Notes: generated by a model from the letters alone, not told the origin. DNA of 64,000 nucleotides from Planctomycetota bacterium (GCA_016209705.1 JACQVR010000134.1:64194-128193), one strand, 5' to 3'; numbered from the stretch's first letter, positions 5,202 to 54,090 are shown. Made by a program: numbers and translations.

Positions 5202-5981
5202 ATGGACAACACTTCTTCCTTCATCGTCCTGGTGGACCCCGACCGCAAGTTGCTCCAGCAGCTTCAGATGTCCTTGAAGGAACAGGGATACGATGTGCTC
5301 GCGGTGACGGAAGCGGAGGCCGGTTTGTCCGCCATCCGCCAGCGAATGCCGGACATGGTCATCACCGAAGTGGTGCTGCCCAACCTGGACGGATGGAGCT
5401 TCATCACGCAGTTTCGGTCGCTTCCCGGAGCCGCGTTCATTCCGGTGGTCTTCCTGTCGAACCAGAACACCGTCAAGGACCGCATTCACAGCTTCCGGCT
5501 GGGAGCGGACGATTACCTGGGCAAGCCGTTCGATACCGAAGAGCTGATCATCCGGGTCGCCCGCGCGTTGGACCGCCGGCGCGGGATCGAGCACACGGCG
5601 CGGGCGCAACGGGCCGCGCGCAAGTCGCCCAGCGGCGTCGGCTTGCACGGGACGCTGGGAGAAATGGGTTTGGCCTCCCTGCTGACCATCCTGGAGATGG
5701 AGCGCAAGAGCGGCATCCTGGAAGTGCGCCATCCGCCGCGCGGCGAGACGGCGGCCGTCCTGTTCAAGAACGGGCGCATCGTCCAGGCGTGCGTGGACGG
5801 CAAGGTCTCCCTGAAAAACCACGAAGCCGTTTACTACCTGTCCGAATGGTCCGGCGGCAAATTCGAGTTCACCTCGCTTCCGGTGGACGTCGACGACGAA
5901 ATCAACGCGTCCACTTCCTCCCTGCTCCTGGAGGCCGCTCGGCGTCTGGATGAGAACCGGCGTCGGGAGACCCACTATTGA
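5202..5981 (+). CDS. Response regulator: receiver domain plus C-terminal DUF4388 domain
   Basis: An N-terminal REC domain (LVDPDRKLL...DMVITEVVLPNLDGW, with Asp and Lys present) is followed by a DUF4388-like block (GTLGEMGLASLLTILEMERKSGILEV). Confidence 0.75.
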   Translation: MDNTSSFIVLVDPDRKLLQQLQMSLKEQGYDVLAVTEAEAGLSAIRQRMPDMVITEVVLPNLDGWSFITQFRSLPGAAFIPVVFLSNQNTVKDRIHSFRLGADDYLGKPFDTEELIIRVARALDRRRGIEHTARAQRAARKSPSGVGLHGTLGEMGLASLLTILEMERKSGILEVRHPPRGETAAVLFKNGRIVQACVDGKVSLKNHEAVYYLSEWSGGKFEFTSLPVDVDDEINASTSSLLLEAARRLDENRRRETHY

Positions 5982-45669: not shown

Positions 45670-45702
45670 GTCATGCTCCCTGTTCTATAGGGCGAAGGCG
45701 AG

Positions 45703-45775
45703 TGCCGGGAGACGGATTCGAACCGTCAGCCTACGGCTTATGAAACCGCCGCTCTAACCGTTGAGCTATCCCGGC
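45703..45775 (-). tRNA. tRNA-Met (anticodon CAT; elongator type because G1-C72 is paired; could alternatively be tRNA-Ile2/lysidine)
   Basis: The reverse complement folds as a cloverleaf: acceptor GCCGGGA/TCCCGGC, D-arm GCTC...GAGC, anticodon stem GCGGT/GCCGT with loop TTCATAA, and T-arm GACGG-TTCGAAT-CCGTC. CCA is not encoded. Confidence 0.85.
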
Positions 45776-45919: not shown

Positions 45920-48391
45920 GTGCCGCACTCCTGTCCGCGGAACTGGACCCTGGGGCTCGGACTCCTGTGTCTCGCCGCCATCCGCTTGGAGTGCGCCTCC
46001 CCCGCGCTCCAGGCTCCTGAAGCGCTCCACCTCCAGCAAGAACCGCGTTCCGTCGCCCGCGATAGGCTGGGCGATCCGCTGCCTCCCGGCGCGATAGCCC
46101 GCTTGGGTACCACTCGCCTCCGCCACCTGGGCCCGGTGTACCGCGTCGCGTTCGCGCCCGACGGCCGGACGTTCGCGTCGGCCAGCGGCGATCGCACCGT
46201 GCGCCTCTGGGACGCCGTCACCGGAGAGGAGCGGTTGAAGCTCACGGGACACGAAGATTTCGTCTCGGCGCTCGCGTTTTCCCGGGACGGGAAGAGGCTC
46301 GCGTCGGGGGGCTTGGACGCGTTCGTGCGCGTCTGGGATCTCGCCGGCGGAAAGGAACTTTTCAAGCTGCCGGGACACAACCGTCCGGTGCAAACCGTCG
46401 CCTTTTCGGCGGACGGCAAGAAACTGGCCGTGGGAATGGAAGGGGCGGTGTTCTTGTGGGACGCCCACTCCGGCAAGGAAATCGTGAAGCCGGAGGAATT
46501 CGCCGATGAGCGCGTTTCCAGCCTGGCGCTTTCGGCGGACTGCGCCACGGTCGCGTTGGGCGCGTGGTCGGGCGACGTGCGCCTGAACGACGTCGTCTCC
46601 GGCGACGAGCGGATGCGGTTGCTCGGGCACGACAAGCCGATCCGCGGCATCGCGTTTTCCCTGGACGGCACGCTCCTCGCGACGGCCAGCAGCGATCGCA
46701 CGGTTCGCCTGTGGAACGCGCAGACGGGTCGGGAGATCCGAGCGCTGGAGGACGCCGACGAGGCGTATTCCGTCGCCTTCTCTCCGGACGGAGCGACCGT
46801 GGCGGCCGGAACCAAGCAGGGCCGAATCACGCTGTGGGATCACGGCACGGGCCGGGAAGCGCGGAGATTCTCCGCGCACGAGGGCGCGATCTTTTCGCTC
46901 GCCTTTTCTCCCAATGGGAGCGCGCTGCTTTCCGGCGGTCTCGATCAGGTCGTCCATCTGTGGCGCGTGGCGTCCGGAGAAGAAGGGATCCCGCGGCCCG
47001 GCCACGCGGGCGCGGTGTCGGGCATCGCGGTCCATCCGCAGACGAATCGCCTGGCGTCGGCGGGCCACGATCAGACGGTTCGTCTCTGGGACGCGGGAAC
47101 GGGAAAGCAACTCTGGAAGGGGATGGGCCATGAGGGGCGCGTTCATGCCGTCGCCTTCTCCCCGCGGGGAGTGACGCTCGCGTCGGGCGGAGAGGACCGG
47201 ACGATTCGCCTGTGGGACGTGTCCTCCGGAAAGGAGCGGCGGGCGCTCGAGGGGCACGAGGCGCCCGTCGGATGCGTGGCGTTTTCCCCGTACGGCGCCA
47301 CGCTGGCGTCCGGCTCCGCGGACCAGACCGTTCGCCTGTGGGAGGTGGAGACGGGCCGGGAACTGCGCGTCCTGAAGGCTCGATCGAGCATGGTCATCGT
47401 TCATTCGGTGGCCTTCTCTCCCGACGGCAAATGGTTGGCGTCGGCAAGCCTGGACCGGGTGGTCCGCGTATGGAATGTGGAAACGGGGGAGGAGGCGCGC
47501 GCGCTCAAAGGACACGAAGGCAACGTGACGTGCGTGGTTTTTTCTCCCGACGGGATGACGCTCGCCTCCGCCGCGGACGGCGCGATCCGCCTGTGGGAAT
47601 CCGCGACGGACCGCCTGCTGCTCACGATGCGGGGGCATGAGGGGGCGATCGCGTCGGTGTCATTTTCCTCCGACGGGAAGTGGATCGCTTCCGCCGGTTA
47701 CGATCGCACCGTCCGGCTGTGGGACGTGGCGACGGGAAAGCAACTGTGGCAACGCGAAGGCCACGCGAAGGAAATCACCGGCGTCTGCGTGTGGGGAACG
47801 GAACACGTCGCCTCCGCGAGCGCCGACACGACGATCCTGATTTGGGATCTGGCGCCGGAGTCCGTTGCGCCCGGTCGCCTGCCGGCCGAAGACGCGGAGC
47901 GGTTGTGGAAAGACCTCGCCGGGGAAGACGGTCCGCGGGCTTATAAGGCGATGTGGCGCCTGGCCGCCGCCGCGGACCAGGCGATCGATCTGATCCGAGG
48001 ACGGCTGGACCAGGAGCGCCCGTCGGCGGAGGAAGTGGAGCGGCTACTGGAGGAACTGGATCACGAAGATGTGGCGGTGCGGGATCGCGCCGCCCGGCGC
48101 TTGGTGGAGTTCGAAGCGGAAGAAGCGCTGCGCGGGCGGCTTGAGCGAGACCCCGGGCCCGAGCTGCGCGCGCGCATCGAGACGCTGCTGGAAGATCTGA
48201 GGCAGCGGCGGGAGACTCCGATCGCCGCCGACGCGCCGTCGCTCCAGCGGATCCGGGCTATCCAGGTTTTGGAACGGGTCGGAACGCCGGAAGCGCTCGA
48301 AGCGCTGGAGCGGCTGGCCGGTCACGCGCCCTGGGCGGGGGTGCGGCGGGACGCGAAAGCCGCGTCGGCCCGGCTCAAGGCACGCCGTTAG
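45920..48391 (+). CDS. Secreted WD40-repeat protein (~14 WD repeats) with a C-terminal HEAT-like repeat region
   Basis: The gene uses a GTG start with an AAAGGAG ribosome-binding site. A signal peptide is followed by repeated ...SASxDxTVRLWD... WD40 units and a C-terminal PBS-lyase/HEAT-like segment. Confidence 0.8.
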   Translation: MPHSCPRNWTLGLGLLCLAAIRLECASPALQAPEALHLQQEPRSVARDRLGDPLPPGAIARLGTTRLRHLGPVYRVAFAPDGRTFASASGDRTVRLWDAVTGEERLKLTGHEDFVSALAFSRDGKRLASGGLDAFVRVWDLAGGKELFKLPGHNRPVQTVAFSADGKKLAVGMEGAVFLWDAHSGKEIVKPEEFADERVSSLALSADCATVALGAWSGDVRLNDVVSGDERMRLLGHDKPIRGIAFSLDGTLLATASSDRTVRLWNAQTGREIRALEDADEAYSVAFSPDGATVAAGTKQGRITLWDHGTGREARRFSAHEGAIFSLAFSPNGSALLSGGLDQVVHLWRVASGEEGIPRPGHAGAVSGIAVHPQTNRLASAGHDQTVRLWDAGTGKQLWKGMGHEGRVHAVAFSPRGVTLASGGEDRTIRLWDVSSGKERRALEGHEAPVGCVAFSPYGATLASGSADQTVRLWEVETGRELRVLKARSSMVIVHSVAFSPDGKWLASASLDRVVRVWNVETGEEARALKGHEGNVTCVVFSPDGMTLASAADGAIRLWESATDRLLLTMRGHEGAIASVSFSSDGKWIASAGYDRTVRLWDVATGKQLWQREGHAKEITGVCVWGTEHVASASADTTILIWDLAPESVAPGRLPAEDAERLWKDLAGEDGPRAYKAMWRLAAAADQAIDLIRGRLDQERPSAEEVERLLEELDHEDVAVRDRAARRLVEFEAEEALRGRLERDPGPELRARIETLLEDLRQRRETPIAADAPSLQRIRAIQVLERVGTPEALEALERLAGHAPWAGVRRDAKAASARLKARR

Positions 48392-48405
48392 CTCGGATGC
48401 CCGAT

Positions 48406-49170
48406 CTATGGCAGCATCCCTTCCCAGTGGTAGGGAAGATCCCGCATCCGGCCGGGACGGTCGGAGGTCCTCAACGCGGCGACCATGTCGTTTACGATGC
48501 TGCGCTGAAGCGCGATCGCGTGGGCCGGTCCCAGGGTGCGGCCGAAGGGGAAGTTGATGAAGAGCGGGCGGGGGACCCGAATCTGGGCCGCGATTTCCTT
48601 GACGGTCACGAGCGTGACCGTCGAGAGCCCGGAGCGCTCGAGTTCGCGCGATATTTCCGCCGCCGTTTGATTGCAGGCGAAGTTCGCCGGCACGATGAAG
48701 ACGACGTCGATGGCGTAGTCTTCGCGCATTTTCCGGCCGACCTCGCGGGCATTGTCCCGCAGCGCGTTCACGTCGTCGCACAGCCCGTAGAAGGAGAAGA
48801 ACGTTTCGCTCACGCCCGCGAGCACGCGCTCTTCCGCCAGTTCCTTGATTCGATCCACCGGCGCGACGACGTTGAGGTCTTCCTCCGCTTCCCGAGGATC
48901 GAAGTTGGTGAAATCGAATGTCAGCGTCGCTCGGGAGACGTACATCGAGATCTCGCGGAAGTCGGGGCTTCCGTGCAGGCGGTCCGCCGCGTATTCCACC
49001 TGGGTCTTCAGGCGCAGGCCGGCCGTCGTGACCAGGGCGCCCTGGCACATGGGGAGCGAGCGGTGCAGCGGCGTCCAGGGCGTGGGTTCCGTCTGAAAGA
49101 AGCCGAACTCGGCGGCGCGGCGCTCCAGAGCGTGACGGCGGTCGGCGGGATAGAAGGCGAACTCGGTCAT
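48406..49170 (-). CDS. Hypothetical protein (possible GrdB/PrdB-like fold)
   Basis: A 254-aa product with protein-like composition, taken from MTEFAFYPADRRHA. The opposite-strand ORF 48397–49242 looks like a shadow of it. Confidence 0.4.
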   Translation of the reverse strand: MTEFAFYPADRRHALERRAAEFGFFQTEPTPWTPLHRSLPMCQGALVTTAGLRLKTQVEYAADRLHGSPDFREISMYVSRATLTFDFTNFDPREAEEDLNVVAPVDRIKELAEERVLAGVSETFFSFYGLCDDVNALRDNAREVGRKMREDYAIDVVFIVPANFACNQTAAEISRELERSGLSTVTLVTVKEIAAQIRVPRPLFINFPFGRTLGPAHAIALQRSIVNDMVAALRTSDRPGRMRDLPYHWEGMLP

Positions 49171-49389
49171 GGCGGCGGACTCCAAAGAGAAGCCCCAACA
49201 AAAGAACGCAAGACGCGTGCGGAGCTTATGAAGGCCGCCTGAAGCCGGCAGGAAAACTCCGAACTGCGCCCTCTCTCTCCCTTCCACAATAAATCTAACA
49301 TGAGATGGCGCGGAAGCAAGGCCGAATCGAGAAAAAAATCGTTGGCGCGCCGGACGGCGGCTTATAATTTCATGCCGGGCACCGGAGCG

Positions 49390-50079
49390 ATGGTTCGGCT
49401 GGCATGGCTGTCGATTTTGACCGGATGCGCGGCGGCAAGCTCACGGCCGTCCGGGCCTTTTGACATTCCCCGGGAATCGTTGGGGGAGGACGCGGTCGCG
49501 GTTCTGGATGAGCCGTCCGCGGTGGTCGATCTGCCGCTCACGCGCGTCGAGAGCCGGCCGGACATCTACGAGTTCCTCCTCGAAGAGCTGCCGTTCACCG
49601 CCGGCGTGCTTCGTGAACTGGGACGGGCGACGTACCGGATCCGGCGGGAAGCGCGGCCGGAGGGCGAGCCGGAGACGATCGTCTTCGACGACGGCGAAGG
49701 CATCGAGGTGCGCGCCGAACTGGTGCTTCGAGAGCGGACGCGGTGGATCTACGTCACCGACGGGCGATACGATCTGGGCCTCTTTTCCGTATGGAGCCGC
49801 GGCGTCGTCATCGTCGTGTATGAAGCGCGGGACGGAGCGCTCTGGACTCGGGCGCGCGTATATGCCAGATTGAAGGGGAAAGTCTTCGAACTGGGCGCGC
49901 TGGTCCTGGGCCTGCTTGAAAGCACGATCCGTTCGAAGGCGCTCGTGTTCGTCGATGCGGCGCGGGAAGTGGCGGAGCTGACGGCCGCCGATCCGGAGCG
50001 GCTCTATCGGAACGTGAAGGGTTCGCGCGAAGTGGACGCCGGCGTGCTCGAGGAGTATCGGCGGCGTTTCTTGAAATAA
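49390..50079 (+). CDS. Hypothetical lipoprotein
   Basis: Carries a lipobox (MVRLAWLSILTGCAAAS) and has no recognisable domain. Confidence 0.5.
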   Translation: MVRLAWLSILTGCAAASSRPSGPFDIPRESLGEDAVAVLDEPSAVVDLPLTRVESRPDIYEFLLEELPFTAGVLRELGRATYRIRREARPEGEPETIVFDDGEGIEVRAELVLRERTRWIYVTDGRYDLGLFSVWSRGVVIVVYEARDGALWTRARVYARLKGKVFELGALVLGLLESTIRSKALVFVDAAREVAELTAADPERLYRNVKGSREVDAGVLEEYRRRFLK

Positions 50080-50095
50080 TTGTTCTTTCAAAATC

Positions 50096-50735
50096 TGGCG
50101 GCGCCGTGACGGCGGCCGAGACGATCGCCCCCGCCCTTTCTCAAGCATTTTGCTGCTTCAATGCGTCTGGACCCCAAAGGAGGGTTGAGCTGTGCGGGAG
50201 ATAAGTGCTCAAGAAAGGGCGGGGGAGGAAAGTCCGGGCTCCACAGGGCGGGATGGTTCCTAACGGGAACCGGCTTCGCGCGGAAGCGCGAAGTCAGGGA
50301 AAGTGCCACAGAAAACAAACCGCCCCGCCCTTTCTTCAGCGTTTGCTTCTTCCGACGGGACCCCTCCGGAAGGGTGTATTTCCGTTCCGGAGAAAAAAAA
50401 TGCTCAAGAAAGGGCGGGGCAAGGGTGAAACGGTGCGGTAAGAGCGCACCGCGCCTCCGGCGACGGAGGCGGCACGGCAAACCCCATCCGGAGAAAGTCC
50501 AAATAGGTGCGCGGATGAAGGCCGGCCCGGCCGAGAGCGCACGGGTAGGACGTTGGAGGCCGCGCGCGAGCGCGGTCCTAGACGGATGATCGTCACCCCG
50601 CCCTTTCTTCAGCGAAACGCTTAGAGGAGAGCGCGCCCTTTCGGAGGGATGTCGCTTCGACGAAGTTTTCGCGTTGGAGAAAGGGCGGGGAACAGGACCC
50701 GGCTTATGAAGCCGCCGTCACCGCGCCGCTCATCA
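50096..50735 (+). ncRNA. rnpB: RNase P RNA (bacterial type A) with three greatly expanded peripheral hairpins
   Basis: The conserved regions are present: GGAAAGTCCGGGCTCC (CR-I), AAGGGTGAAACGGTGCGGTAAGAGCGCACC (CR-II/III), GTCCAAATAGG (CR-IV) and ACAGGACCCGGCTTA (CR-V). P1 is formed by GGCGGCGCCGTGACGGCGGC (5') and GCCGCCGTCACCGCGCCGC (3'). Roughly 100-nt hairpins occupy the P3, P12 and P18 positions. Confidence 0.8.
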
Positions 50736-50790
50736 TGCAAGGTCCCGGAACGTATATAAGGGTGAGGCGGCATTGCATCTGGAGGAAACC

Positions 50791-51483
50791 ATGAAGCGGC
50801 TGATCGGTTGGATGGCGCCGGCGGCGGCGCTCCTGGCGCTCGCTCTCTCGGCGAACGCTCAGGACGATAAAGAGGCGCTCAAGAAGAAGATTTTGGAGTC
50901 CGTCGAGAAGAAGCTGAAGGAGGAAGAGGAGCGCATTCTCAAAGAGGTCGCGAAGCTCATCGACGATGAGCTGGGCAAGGGGATGGGCAAGAAGTCCGAC
51001 GACAAGCCCAAGGAAGATCCCCCTCCGGCCAAGAAGGCGGGTTACCTCGGCATCCAGGCGGAAGAAGTTTCCCGCGAGGAGTGCGAGGAGCTGAAGATCG
51101 AAGGCGGGGTCCGCGTCTACGCGGTGCATCCCGACAGCCCGGCCCAGAAGGGAGGGGTGGAGGAAGGCGACATCATCGTCGAGATCGACGGCGAGAAGAT
51201 TCTCGATTTCGCGACGCTGCGGCCCGTGCTGCTCAAGAAGGGAGCCGGCGCCGGCGTGACGATGAAGGTGCTGAGAAGCAAGAAGTCGCGCGAGATCAAA
51301 GTGACGCTGGGCGTCCATCCGGAGGAGCAGTCGCGCGGCGTTCCGGAACAGCGCCCGAAGTCGGACCGGAAGGCCGAAGCCAAGAAGACCGAGGAGCCCT
51401 CCAAGGACGAATCCTCGAAAACCTCGAAAGGCGACCAGGATCTCCGCGAACGCCTGCGGAAGTTCCTGGAGAAGCAGAAGTAG
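50791..51483 (+). CDS. Secreted PDZ-domain protein with Lys/Glu-rich flanks
   Basis: A signal peptide (MKRLIGWMAPAAALLALALSANA) is followed by a PDZ core (GYLGIQAEEVSREECEELKIEGGVRVYAVHPDSPAQKGGVEEGDIIVEIDGEKI). Confidence 0.65.
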   Translation: MKRLIGWMAPAAALLALALSANAQDDKEALKKKILESVEKKLKEEEERILKEVAKLIDDELGKGMGKKSDDKPKEDPPPAKKAGYLGIQAEEVSREECEELKIEGGVRVYAVHPDSPAQKGGVEEGDIIVEIDGEKILDFATLRPVLLKKGAGAGVTMKVLRSKKSREIKVTLGVHPEEQSRGVPEQRPKSDRKAEAKKTEEPSKDESSKTSKGDQDLRERLRKFLEKQK

Positions 51484-51659
51484 CGGCGGAAACGAATCGC
51501 GGATTCGGCCTCCCGCCCGAATCCCCCTGGCTTTTTTCACGCGAACCTTTCGCGCCGGTGTGTTACTCTATCCGCTAGACGTTCGGGGCGATCCGACGTC
51601 AAATAATCGTTGGCCGAGTGACCCGTGATCGCCTGCTCTGGGGTGGAGAACGCCGTTCG

Positions 51660-52253
51660 ATGCCGGATCCCGCGGAAGTCGATCTGATCCAACGCTGCCA
51701 GAAGGGCCATGAAGGCGCGTTCCGCGAATTGATGGAACGCTACCAACGTCGGACCTACTGGATCGCGCACAACATGCTCAACAATTACGATCTCGCCCAG
51801 GACATTTCTCAGGAAGCGTTCATCCGCGTCTTCCGCAATCTGCGCAACTTCGACGTAAAGAAAAACTTCTACACGTGGCTCTACCAGATCGTCGTGAATC
51901 TGTGCATCGACCATCTGCGCAAGATGTCGCACGGGCGGACGGTGGATCTGGACGAGGTGGGAGGGTTGCCGGACGACGAGAAGCGGAACCCGCATGAAGA
52001 GTCCGGTCGCGCCGAGTTGCGCGGCCGGGTCCAGAAGACGCTGGATCGCCTTCCGCCGAAGTACAAGGCGGTCATCATGCTGCGCGACATCCAGGGCTTT
52101 TCCTGCGAGGAGATCAGCGAGATCGTCGGCTGCACGAACGCGACGACGCGGTGGCGCCTGCACCGGGCGCGCAAGCTCTTCAAGGCGTTGTGGACGGGCA
52201 AGCGCGTCGAAGCGGCCCGCGACGACGACGGCGACGCCGACCTGTTACAATAA
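51660..52253 (+). CDS. ECF-type RNA polymerase sigma-70 family factor (sigma-24/RpoE-like)
   Basis: Contains sigma region 2 (YWIAHNMLNNYDLAQDISQEAFIRVFRNLRNFD) and region 4 (LPPKYKAVIMLRDIQGFSCEEISEIVGCTNATTRWRLHRARK). Confidence 0.85.
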   Translation: MPDPAEVDLIQRCQKGHEGAFRELMERYQRRTYWIAHNMLNNYDLAQDISQEAFIRVFRNLRNFDVKKNFYTWLYQIVVNLCIDHLRKMSHGRTVDLDEVGGLPDDEKRNPHEESGRAELRGRVQKTLDRLPPKYKAVIMLRDIQGFSCEEISEIVGCTNATTRWRLHRARKLFKALWTGKRVEAARDDDGDADLLQ

Positions 52254-52274
52254 GTTTTGAGAATATATTGTAAC
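52244..52274. repeat. 31-nt palindromic element GTTACAATAAGTTTTGAGAATATATTGTAAC (family copy D, inverted orientation)
   Basis: It overlaps the sigma-factor stop codon and lies between the sigma and anti-sigma genes. Its centre is the reverse complement of the TTCTCAAAA centre seen in the other copies. Confidence 0.6.
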
Positions 52275-52361
52275 GGGCGGCTTCCCCGGGAGCGGGGTCC
52301 GCGAGGTTTCCAACATTTCGGGTGGAGTTCCGTACCACCTACAGAGCCGGAGACTTATTTC

Positions 52362-52979
52362 ATGGGTTGCGAGGACATGAAGGACCTGCTGGCGCTGGAA
52401 GCCGGCGGGGATGCTCAGCCGGATGAACGGATCGCCGTCGAATCTCATATTGCGGTGTGTCCCGAGTGCGCGCGCGAATTGACGGATTATCGCCAACTGC
52501 GCGCCGCCCTGGCTGAATTGCGCGAAGGCGCGGTGCCGTCCAGAACGTTCGAGCGGATCCGCGGGCAGGTCGGCAGCGCCATGAAGTTCACCATCGTCCA
52601 GCGCTCCACCGCCTCATGGTTCGTGCGCGCCGCCGCCGTGCTCGTCGTGGGCGTATCGGTGGGCTTCTCCAGCGCTTCGATCTATCGCCAGGTCACCCAG
52701 CTTCGGCCCGCGGTGGAAGCGGAGGATGGCGTCGCGGACCAGGACCTGGAAATGGAAAAGGGCGCCAGCAACGTTTCCGGCAGGCCCTATCGGACCGCCG
52801 CCGGAGCGCGCGGTTTCGGCATCATTTCGCCGCCCTCGGTACTGGATCCGCTCCGCGGCGGCTTCACGTTCCGCATCGACCGGACGCCGGAAGCCAAGGT
52901 GAATGATTCTTCTAAAGACGGCGTCTACTACCTCCCGCGCGTCGAAAGCTTCCCCGATCCTCATGAGGTGGATTTCTAA
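52362..52979 (+). CDS. Anti-sigma factor (zf-HC2 zinc-finger type, single TM segment)
   Basis: A H-x3-C-x2-C motif (HIAVCPECAREL) is followed by a TM helix (WFVRAAAVLVVGVSVGF). It lies directly downstream of the ECF sigma gene. Confidence 0.7.
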   Translation: MGCEDMKDLLALEAGGDAQPDERIAVESHIAVCPECARELTDYRQLRAALAELREGAVPSRTFERIRGQVGSAMKFTIVQRSTASWFVRAAAVLVVGVSVGFSSASIYRQVTQLRPAVEAEDGVADQDLEMEKGASNVSGRPYRTAAGARGFGIISPPSVLDPLRGGFTFRIDRTPEAKVNDSSKDGVYYLPRVESFPDPHEVDF

Positions 52980-52998
52980 AGCGGGTCCTGGAACCAGC

Positions 52999-54090
52999 AT
53001 GAACGCGCTCCTGTGGATGGCGCTGTCGGCCGGCGTCGCGTCGGCCGCGCAAGAGCCCCCCCCCTCCCAGGAGGAACCCAGCGCGCTCGAAAGGATCGAA
53101 CGCGACGTCGCCGCCGTCGTCGAGCGCGCGCGCAAATCCGTCGTTCAAGTCACGGTCCGTTGCGCCGCCATGGTCGACCGCATGCCGGTCTCCGAGACGG
53201 TGAAGCTTTCGGGCGTCGTCTATTCGGAGGACGGCGTCATCCTTACTGACGCTGGCGGCCTGGATTCGGCCGTCGAAGTGCGGGTGACGCTGCCGGAAGG
53301 ACACGAGACGTTCGCGACGGTCGTGGCGGTGGATCCCCAGACCTCGATCGGCGTCTTGCGCATCAAGGCCACGGGACTGACGCCGGCCGAATTTACGGAC
53401 TCCCCGGAAATCCGGCAGGGCAGTTTCGCCGTGGTCGTCGGAAATCCCATGGGTCTGCGCGGATCCTCCTCGGTTGGCTTCCTGAGCGGCACGGGACGCT
53501 CCATTGTGTGCCGCGGCCGCCGCTTCGACGACATGCTTCAACTCACGACTTCCGTCCAGCCGGGCGACTGCGGCGGCTTCGTCGCCGACGCGCGCGGCCG
53601 TCTGATCGGCATGGTGCATTCCAACCACGTCAGCCGCGCGCTCGATCCCGCGAGCATGAGCATCCTGATGCTCCTGGGCAAGAACGGGGCCAATTTCATG
53701 CAAGCCGGAATCCAGATGACGGCGTTCGCCACGCCTTCCAGCGTCGTGCGGATGGTCGCCGAACGGATCCTGAAATACGGCCGCATGGTTCGCGGTTGGG
53801 CCGGGCTGTCGGTGCGGCCGATCGATCTGTCGAAGCGGGAGCAGCTCGATCTTCCGCCGGGCCACGGCGGAGAAATCTTCTCGGTCGACAAGTCCGGTCC
53901 GGCCCGCAAAGCGGGCCTCAAGCGCGGCGACATCCTCCTGTCGTTCGACGGCGAACCGGTGAGCGATCTTCAGGCGCTTCGGTGGAAGGTCCAGCGGATC
54001 GAGGAGCCGCGCGACGTGAAAGTCGTCATCCTGCGCGGCGACGAACGCCTCGAAAAGAACCTTCGAGTGGAGCTTGAACCCCAGCCGTGA
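52999..54090 (+). CDS. HtrA/DegP-like trypsin-fold protein with PDZ domain whose catalytic triad is degenerate (predicted non-catalytic)
   Basis: A signal peptide is followed by an HtrA scaffold in which TNNH is replaced by TDAGG (no His), the Asp position by Ser, and GNSGG by GDCGG (Ser to Cys). The PDZ domain is intact. Confidence 0.7.
   Translation: MNALLWMALSAGVASAAQEPPPSQEEPSALERIERDVAAVVERARKSVVQVTVRCAAMVDRMPVSETVKLSGVVYSEDGVILTDAGGLDSAVEVRVTLPEGHETFATVVAVDPQTSIGVLRIKATGLTPAEFTDSPEIRQGSFAVVVGNPMGLRGSSSVGFLSGTGRSIVCRGRRFDDMLQLTTSVQPGDCGGFVADARGRLIGMVHSNHVSRALDPASMSILMLLGKNGANFMQAGIQMTAFATPSSVVRMVAERILKYGRMVRGWAGLSVRPIDLSKREQLDLPPGHGGEIFSVDKSGPARKAGLKRGDILLSFDGEPVSDLQALRWKVQRIEEPRDVKVVILRGDERLEKNLRVELEPQP

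Follow-up and report, generated by a model that had tools for sequence, protein, structure and literature searches.

Correia, ERIC and RUP elements, Rickettsia palindromic elements (RPE) and REPINs are non-coding inverted repeats of ~100–150 bp that are co-transcribed as hairpins. Some of these palindromic MITEs lie within genes (RPE); some undergo RNase III cleavage or serve as terminators or stabilisers. They are genus- or species-specific, present in high copy, and usually accompanied by target duplications or linked to a known transposase or RAYT. In RNase P RNA, heptanucleotide repeats (STRRs) reportedly occupy P12 in heterocyst-forming cyanobacteria, as Vioque is said to have described in 1997. 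The IVSs of rRNA are ~100-nt stem-loops that replace peripheral helix tips, occur sporadically in close relatives while being shared by distant taxa, and leave the host RNA functional; their defining feature is excision by RNase III without religation. The rRNA genes of CPR bacteria contain many short, ORF-less, non-intron insertions at stem-loop tips, interpreted as IVSs that spread horizontally and are cleaved by RNase III (PMC11270868). For the RNase P RNAs of the Planctomycetes-Verrucomicrobia-Chlamydiae (PVC) group, PMC9945441, citing Butler & Fuerst 2004, names P9, P16.1, P18.1 and P19 as unusual peripheral expansions.

The rnpB gene described here, found in a 64-kb window (64,000 nucleotides, the whole stretch of DNA analysed), carries three long hairpins at P3, P12 and the P19 position. 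They belong to an apparently undescribed cross-phylum hairpin family, F1. F1 has the structural hallmark of IVSs, an extended stem-loop that replaces the tip of a stable-RNA helix and is sporadic among relatives, and the copies in 16S h26 (L012) and 23S H63 (L028) sit exactly as IVSs do. It differs from them in that one ribozyme, RNase P RNA, here hosts three copies, in that it also occurs in a riboswitch, tRNA leaders and mRNA spacers, and in 13–15-bp arms that are identical across phyla; RNase III excision is putative for F1. With STRRs, F1 shares residence as a repeat family in the dispensable P12 of rnpB, apparently without destroying function, but STRRs are tandem 7-mers abundant throughout the genome, whereas F1 is a single ~96-nt inverted-repeat hairpin at low copy in three or four helices. 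Like palindromic MITEs, F1 is a small non-coding inverted-repeat hairpin element with terminal inverted repeats; in contrast to them it has neither target-site duplications nor many dispersed copies per genome, no transposase was found, and it spans phyla and concentrates in translation-apparatus RNAs. Its low copy number and its absence from the sampled flanks are unlike a proliferating MITE. As in the PVC expansions, the window rnpB has an extra helix between the 3′ strands of P2 and P4. In PMC9945441, P19 and the other expansions are presented as known PVC features and as lineage-specific, whereas F1 is one sequence module recurring across helices and in other RNAs.

The interval 50097–50730 on the plus strand matches RF00010 (RNaseP_bact_a) in Infernal with 230.6 bits (gathering score 100, E=1.2e-73) over model positions 1–367. 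It scores above the gathering score across the full model, and the conserved P4 strands and the closing helices P1 and P2 are all present, which places it in RF00010. The features of the gene are as follows; energies and z-scores refer to isolated folding, and hairpin bit scores to R1, a covariance model built from the hairpin family.

50097–50730, plus strand: rnpB, bacterial type-A RNase P RNA, ~634 nt including three inserted hairpins (Infernal RF00010 and the ends of the P1 helix)
50098–50116, plus strand: 5′ strand of P1, pairing with 50711–50729; a 19-nt inverted repeat, 95% complementary, with arms 594 nt apart
50120–50126, plus strand: 5′ strand of P2, GACGAUC, partner GAUCGUC at 50588–50594; complementarity read from the sequence
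50128–50225, plus strand: hairpin copy 1, P3; arms 50129–50141 and 50212–50224; -56.1 kcal/mol, z=-6.4; R1 58.6 bits
50226–50242, plus strand: 5′ strand of P4, AGGAAAGUCCGGGCUCC, directly 3′ of hairpin copy 1
50322–50420, plus strand: hairpin copy 2, P12; arms 50323–50335 and 50407–50419; -60 kcal/mol, z=-7.35; R1 49.1 bits
50558–50577, plus strand: the true P18, an ordinary short helix, GGCCGCGC-GCGA-GCGCGGUC, from the Infernal consensus-structure line; conserved in relatives
50596–50690, plus strand: hairpin copy 3, P19 position; arms 50596–50608 and 50678–50690; -55.8 kcal/mol, z=-5.5; R1 54.3 bits
50692–50706, plus strand: 3′ strand of P4, ACAGGACCCGGCUUA, fitting the RF00010 consensus ACAGAACCCGGCUUA; no variation in the alignment with relatives

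The gene is alignable end to end with the syntenic rnpB genes of relatives, and the locus looks like a functional type-A RNase P RNA gene. An initial annotation of the window had recognised a type-A rnpB core, which the full-model match confirms. It had also dismissed the overlapping ORFs as spurious, rightly so; these run over the RNA gene on both strands. The Infernal search it proposed establishes the type-A identity but does not by itself give the boundaries: Infernal's own span is 50186–50639, with P1, P3 and the 3′ end misplaced because of the long inserts. The length of ~634 nt follows instead from P1, which closes the molecule. A promoter and terminator scan around the gene returned nothing, and Tandem Repeats Finder detected no tandem array in 48000–53000, so that an array of the STRR type does not apply. 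In the surroundings, the sole tRNA of the window, tRNA-Met(CAT) (45702–45775, minus strand), adjoins the gene for an 823-aa WD40-repeat protein (45920–48391), and a cluster encoding an ECF sigma factor, a zf-HC2 anti-sigma factor and an HtrA-like protease lies downstream of rnpB (51618–54090).

All three hairpins, 95–97 nt long, share 13 identical basal pairs, CCCCGCCCUUUCU/AGAAAGGGCGGGG, with inner arm spacings of 70, 71 and 69 nt in copies 1, 2 and 3. The exact sequence CCCCGCCCTTTCT occurs six times in the 64-kb window, three times per strand and always inside rnpB; allowing up to 2 mismatches adds a single match at an unrelated site. Likewise, an R1 search of the window recovers only the three rnpB copies, even at E<=10. 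Folded in isolation, each hairpin reaches -56 to -60 kcal/mol (z -5.5 to -7.4), a stability equalled by 0/200 shuffles.

P18 is the helix 5′ of the P2 3′ strand, and its GNRA loop docks in P8. The three long hairpins on a common stem reported in the initial annotation are present, but of its assignments to P3, P12 and P18 only the first two stand. Copy 2 is placed by Infernal as an insertion in the P12 loop, from J11/12 CACAGAAAAC to J12/13 AAGGGUGAAA. Copy 3 is ruled out as P18, as it lies 3′ of the P2 3′ strand (50588–50594 in the Infernal structure annotation) and a separate P18 exists; its place between the 3′ strands of P2 and P4 is that of P19, where relatives have a mini helix, CCC-GAAA-GGG. 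The potential for alternative pairing between helices, which the same annotation had raised, is borne out by the minimum-free-energy fold of the whole RNA, in which the P12 5′ arm pairs with the P19 3′ arm. Inter-helix pairing is predicted to be competitive in energy, and since the cross-paired form is the thermodynamic optimum, mis-pairing is a real risk, presumably avoided by co-transcriptional local folding.

The protein encoded upstream of rnpB marks the source as a Planctomycetes MAG. Its homologues, at 46–52% identity, stand beside rnpB in the same gene order in relatives, namely an AlaX-like gene, a hypothetical gene and rnpB. In these relatives (L038 and L039–L041), P3 measures ~30 nt and P12 ~40 nt, P19 is the mini helix, and F1 arms are absent from rnpB. 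The three window hairpins are therefore lineage-specific gains, which answers a question raised by the initial annotation, and because the relatives' P3 stems have no F1 arms, the window P3 copy is itself a gain. In another related planctomycete (L036:4868–5145), P3 and P12 of rnpB are both ~90 nt long and have in common a different 20-nt 5′ arm, ATCGCGTTGGAGAGTGARAG, while their 3′ arms pair differently; a tandem array of GAGGGAAA follows that gene at ~5400–5465. Degenerate short repeats (GAAG/ACGAAC-rich tracts) lie on both sides of rnpB in L039 (3380–3580 and 4140–4240).

Within the window gene, the interiors of P3 and P12 are significantly similar (p=0.001), those of P12 and P19 marginally so, and those of P3 and P19 not significantly. 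The residual likeness points to a single origin followed by long divergence of these sequences, and the P3/P12 homology would fit duplication and divergence as well as separate insertions.

Outside the window, F1 was sought by an exact-arm scan, CCCGCCCTTTCT-N55-85-AGAAAGGGCGGG, of 185,579 genomes, one per species (596 Gb). The scan returned 35 loci, against 0.07–0.24 expected by chance, on contigs with a GC content of 0.30–0.64 labelled as Patescibacteria (many lineages), Saccharibacteria, Verrucomicrobiota, Brocadiaceae, Elusimicrobia, Omnitrophota, Clostridia and 'Gammaproteobacteria' MAGs; arm invariance among them is true by construction, as the search demanded exact arms. The RNA hosts are the following.

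rnpB: L001 (four copies) and L025 (P12)
16S rRNA, h26: L012
23S rRNA, H63: L028
FMN aptamer, variable P3 loop: L035
tRNA leaders and trailers: L005, L006, L024, L029 and L032

In the Saccharibacteria rnpB (L025), F1 forms P12 and P3 is unrelated. The Curtissbacteria 16S gene with F1 in h26 also has a group I intron (L012:2575–2811; RF00028, 50.3 bits). Among the tRNA-associated copies, one lies directly against the RNase P cleavage site at the 5′ end of tRNA-Arg (L024), one is 46 nt upstream of tRNA-Val (L005) and one follows tRNA-Asp (L006), while two (L029, L032) enclose a complete tRNA. In L032 (620–790), F1 takes the place of the anticodon loop in a Saccharibacteria tRNA-like gene whose acceptor, D and T arms are intact and whose CCA is encoded; the F1 interior is a complete tRNA-Val(CAC), a tRNA nested in a tRNA-like gene. 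In L029 (2340–2620), two consecutive tRNA-Arg(TCG) each lie within long complementary stems that start with CCCCGCCC, end with GGGCGGGG, and resemble the processing stems around tRNAs.

Thirteen further copies are in short spacers, at S3|L16, L15|SecY, S15, L1, S6, S4, SSB|EF-P, EF-P, KhpA, HPF, Dus, LeuRS and HisRS. In total, translation-apparatus genes host or adjoin 23/35 loci; given the abundance of translation genes in CPR genomes, part of this enrichment is expected. The orthologous loci L018 and L031 retain both arms perfectly, while interior and flanks have diverged. In these related Patescibacteria (L018:700–860, L031:290–450), a tiny lysine-rich ORF (MAKKK...KKK*) precedes F1 and a U-tract upstream of a hibernation-factor gene, and F1 with its U-tract appears to act as the terminator of this ORF. 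Common interiors occur in two pairs of loci (L024 with L033, L004 with L034) and are probably the product of duplicative spread within a genome. Since near-identical modules recur in RNAs and operons of several phyla, F1 looks like an undescribed hairpin element of translation-machinery RNAs.

Most F1-carrying genomes have one exact-arm locus in the scan, and 1–4 copies are present as far as sampled. Using R1, no further copies were detected in the window, in 246 kb of genome loci (L008 excepted) or in 616 kb of metagenome loci; in all three sets the few-kb flanks of the rnpB genes are free of F1. Clustering of ORFs within 2.5 kb of all 35 copies, whose arm spacing was searched up to 85 nt, revealed no recurrent protein family or transposase. 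Direct repeats do not flank F1 copies, and viral contigs gave 0 matches. No Rfam 15 family reaches its gathering score on any hairpin of the window or of 41 loci; at E<=0.5 the hairpins give only chance plant-miRNA matches, and self-cleaving ribozyme models match neither hairpins nor loci. In the full-text literature the arm sequence yields only chance matches in unrelated papers, and searches of the literature on rnpB, MITEs, palindromic elements, IVSs and CPR bacteria turned up no account of F1 or of such elements in rnpB. As to other known classes, the interiors are not decayed tRNAs, as tRNA models match only those of L029 and L032; integron attC sites do not apply, with the arms perfectly paired, free of extrahelical bases and outside any cassette context; and the arms are not themselves the palindromic REPs of a REPIN. 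A candidate resemblance links the 5′ arm with the 3′ end of 16S and the anticodon arm of tRNA-Glu.

A metagenome scan anchored at the P3/P4 junction yielded two kinds of sequence. The first comprises numerous short P3 helices of ordinary type that already have GGGCGGGG as their 3′ strand, exemplified by L121 (CCCCGCCCUU-CGAG-AAGGGCGGGG) and L161; the first 8–10 pairs of the F1 arm thus coincide with a common native P3 stem. Where the full 10-bp base is present, P3 measures 24 to 101 nt, most often 93–97 nt. Consequently, F1 insertion and extension of the native helix are indistinguishable for P3 alone. The second kind consists of ~21 rnpB genes of Verrucomicrobia type with near-identical cores and a ~95-nt F1 hairpin in P3, to which further copies are added in some genes.

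F1 at P3 alone: L058, L060, L061 and L091
Extra F1 at P8.1: L042, L131, L156 and L001
Extra F1 at P12: L116 and L001
Extra F1 at P19: L052, L090, L096, L103 and L001

These genes have one to four copies at P3, P8.1, P12 and P19, and presence varies among near-identical cores, a patchwork that is best read as gain and loss among close relatives. Comparison of filled with empty sites reveals that the whole native helix tip is replaced rather than interrupted, always in sense orientation and without target duplication. Copies that occupy one site in different genomes are clear orthologues, while copies at different sites of one gene are only weakly alike; hence there is no ongoing homogenisation in this set, contrary to the concerted evolution offered as one option by the initial annotation. 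Its other option, three independent insertions of one palindromic element, is the better description because the identical-arm hairpin recurs in unrelated RNAs and phyla; the single element stands, whereas the independence of the insertions is unproven. In some of these genes P8.1 and P12 have in common other hairpins, each pair within one rnpB: F2, an AT-rich palindromic hairpin (GATTTCAAATTTGAAATC), and F3 (TGTAGCGGCGGTCTGTGA). The F2 and F3 loci are L065, L052, L058 and L148 (P8.1 and P12), as well as L090 and L116, and neither hairpin was found in the sampled flanks. On one truncated contig (L085:1–125), where P3 is a 101-nt F1-like hairpin, an extra F1-type 3′ arm, CAAAAGGGCGGGG, lies directly upstream of P1, which suggests a further F1 copy just outside the gene.

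In 33 rnpB-hosted copies, 96% of the cells of the basal 21 bp are paired, and 71 cells have changed on both sides, against 22.5 in shuffles (as high in 0/500). On the sense strand, G-U pairs far outnumber A-C mismatches, and the helix is therefore maintained as RNA. This comparative record shows the F1 stem to be under selection as RNA. The terminal arms are perfect over 13–15 bp, often extended to (A)AAC...GTT(T), and in the P8.1, P12 and P19 copies of the Verrucomicrobia type, which were found without sequence bias, variation is concentrated at arm position 4 and the neighbouring pairs are fixed. Across subfamilies only the basal ~21 bp are alignable and no conserved interior fold was found; YUGAC-N7-GUCAG, seen by eye, is a candidate sub-family interior motif. 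Element length has an interquartile range of 96–99 nt. Interior GC follows that of the host (r=0.63, p=2e-5) with the arms fixed, which probably reflects long residence in the host. The combination of identical arms in different phyla with host-adapted interiors is hard to explain by a purely selfish element, short of frequent transfer or a common factor that reads the arms.

We consider it somewhat likely that the rnpB helix tips were replaced by IVS-like F1 cassettes that are copied into helix tips of stable RNAs and into operon spacers. The tips of the solvent-exposed P3, P12 and P19 would each have been exchanged for one ~96-nt cassette. Such a cassette consists of an invariant basal clamp of 13–15 bp, whose 5′ strand is pyrimidine, (A)CCCCGCCCUUUCU, and whose 3′ strand is purine, AGAAAGGGCGGGG(U), of a further 6–9 semi-conserved pairs, and of a free interior. 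Copying would take place at the DNA level, both inside a gene and from genome to genome, into stable-RNA helix tips and short spacers of highly expressed operons. The cassettes would be transcribed with the host RNA and fold locally as rod-like extensions, and RNase III may cut them, by analogy with IVSs. RNase P would tolerate the cassette because the GC clamp makes it fold autonomously, and the catalytic core would still fold because this GC-rich clamp insulates the insert.

How far F1 behaves as an IVS in the full sense bears directly on the host RNA. If RNase III cuts the stems and the interiors are released, up to four fragments held together non-covalently would make up mature RNase P RNA. 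Each stem offers at least 21–22 nearly continuous pairs, a typical RNase III substrate. The rRNA copies L012 and L028 occupy helix tips like known IVSs, the short ORF-less rRNA insertions of CPR bacteria are probable RNase III-cleaved IVSs (PMC11270868), and whole tRNAs lie inside L029 and L032 just as rRNAs lie inside their processing stems. Cutting would nevertheless harm the FMN aptamer copy and the operon-spacer copies, and the selection on pairing fits retention equally, so that we regard genuine IVSs as possible but doubtful. Rather unlikely, in our assessment, is an origin within the gene without any mobile element, in which the arms would be no more than RNase P RNA's conserved P3 stem and an extended P3 (or P12) hairpin would have been copied to other tips of the gene, microhomology at the C-rich/G-rich helix bases having primed template switching or gene conversion. 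The native P3 stem does supply 8–10 of the basal pairs (L121, L161) on helices of 24–101 nt, and replacement of whole tips in sense orientation without target duplication would agree with it, as would the absence of copies outside rnpB in the PVC flanks sampled and the likeness still detectable between the window P3 and P12 interiors. Moreover, three other hairpin sequences each occupy two helices of one rnpB (P3/P12 in L036; F2 and F3 in P8.1/P12). What such an origin leaves unexplained is the recurrence of 13–17-nt arms and the ~96-nt length in 16S, 23S, a riboswitch, tRNA leaders and mRNA spacers of other phyla, the Saccharibacteria gene with F1 in P12 and an unrelated P3 (L025), and the window's relatives, whose P3 without F1 arms marks the window P3 copy as a gain.

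The conservation of the arms in sequence, beyond pairing, could alternatively mean that the invariant basal helix is a sequence-specific handle for a single trans-acting factor, be it RNase P itself or an RNA-binding or processing protein; the targets of this factor would be RNase P RNA, rRNA, tRNA precursors and ribosomal-protein mRNAs, and three handles would render this RNase P RNA multivalent. Drifting interiors at a constant length of ~96 nt, the fixed pairs adjacent to arm position 4 in the unbiased Verrucomicrobia-type copies, the 23/35 loci in or beside translation-apparatus genes, the copy at the tRNA-Arg cleavage site (L024) and a copy number unlike that of selfish repeats all agree with such a function. 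We nonetheless judge it improbable: a candidate factor or co-located gene was not found, close relatives do well without the hairpins, arm invariance stems partly from the ascertainment of copies, and L017, L018 and L031 look like plain terminators with a U-tract. Finally, collapsed repeats or chimeric joins are conceivable because the source is a metagenome-assembled genome and repeats are prone to mis-assembly. Such an artefact is hardly credible, given three copies with different interiors at structurally sensible sites of an intact gene on a 131-kb contig, and the same architecture in independent assemblies, including loci that are identical between samples (L103/L124, L049/L138, L046/L150).

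For the copied, IVS-like cassette that we favour, the consequences reach beyond this locus. RNase P RNA is a textbook ribozyme whose peripheral helices are usually seen as lineage decorations that evolve vertically; here, whole helices would have been swapped for copies of a portable hairpin, repeatedly within a single molecule. In practice, such inserts mislead covariance-model annotation of rnpB ends and helices and spawn false ORFs. A more far-reaching notion, which we hold to be a long shot, is that F1 is no passenger but a sequence-specific RNA handle, common to RNase P RNA, rRNAs, tRNA precursors, a riboswitch and ribosomal-protein operon transcripts and read or cut by one conserved factor, tying together the biogenesis of the translation apparatus across phyla, or else a new kind of hairpin element that copies itself specifically into the helix tips of stable RNAs; if the latter is true, the RNase P ribozyme of this organism could be naturally fragmented into four pieces. 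The finding makes it conceivable that the host RNAs have a processing or recognition signal in common, or that RNase P RNA is split in nature. It also ties short, uncharacterised insertions in CPR rRNA genes to a defined sequence family, and it would offer a concrete, testable route by which structured RNAs gain expansion segments.
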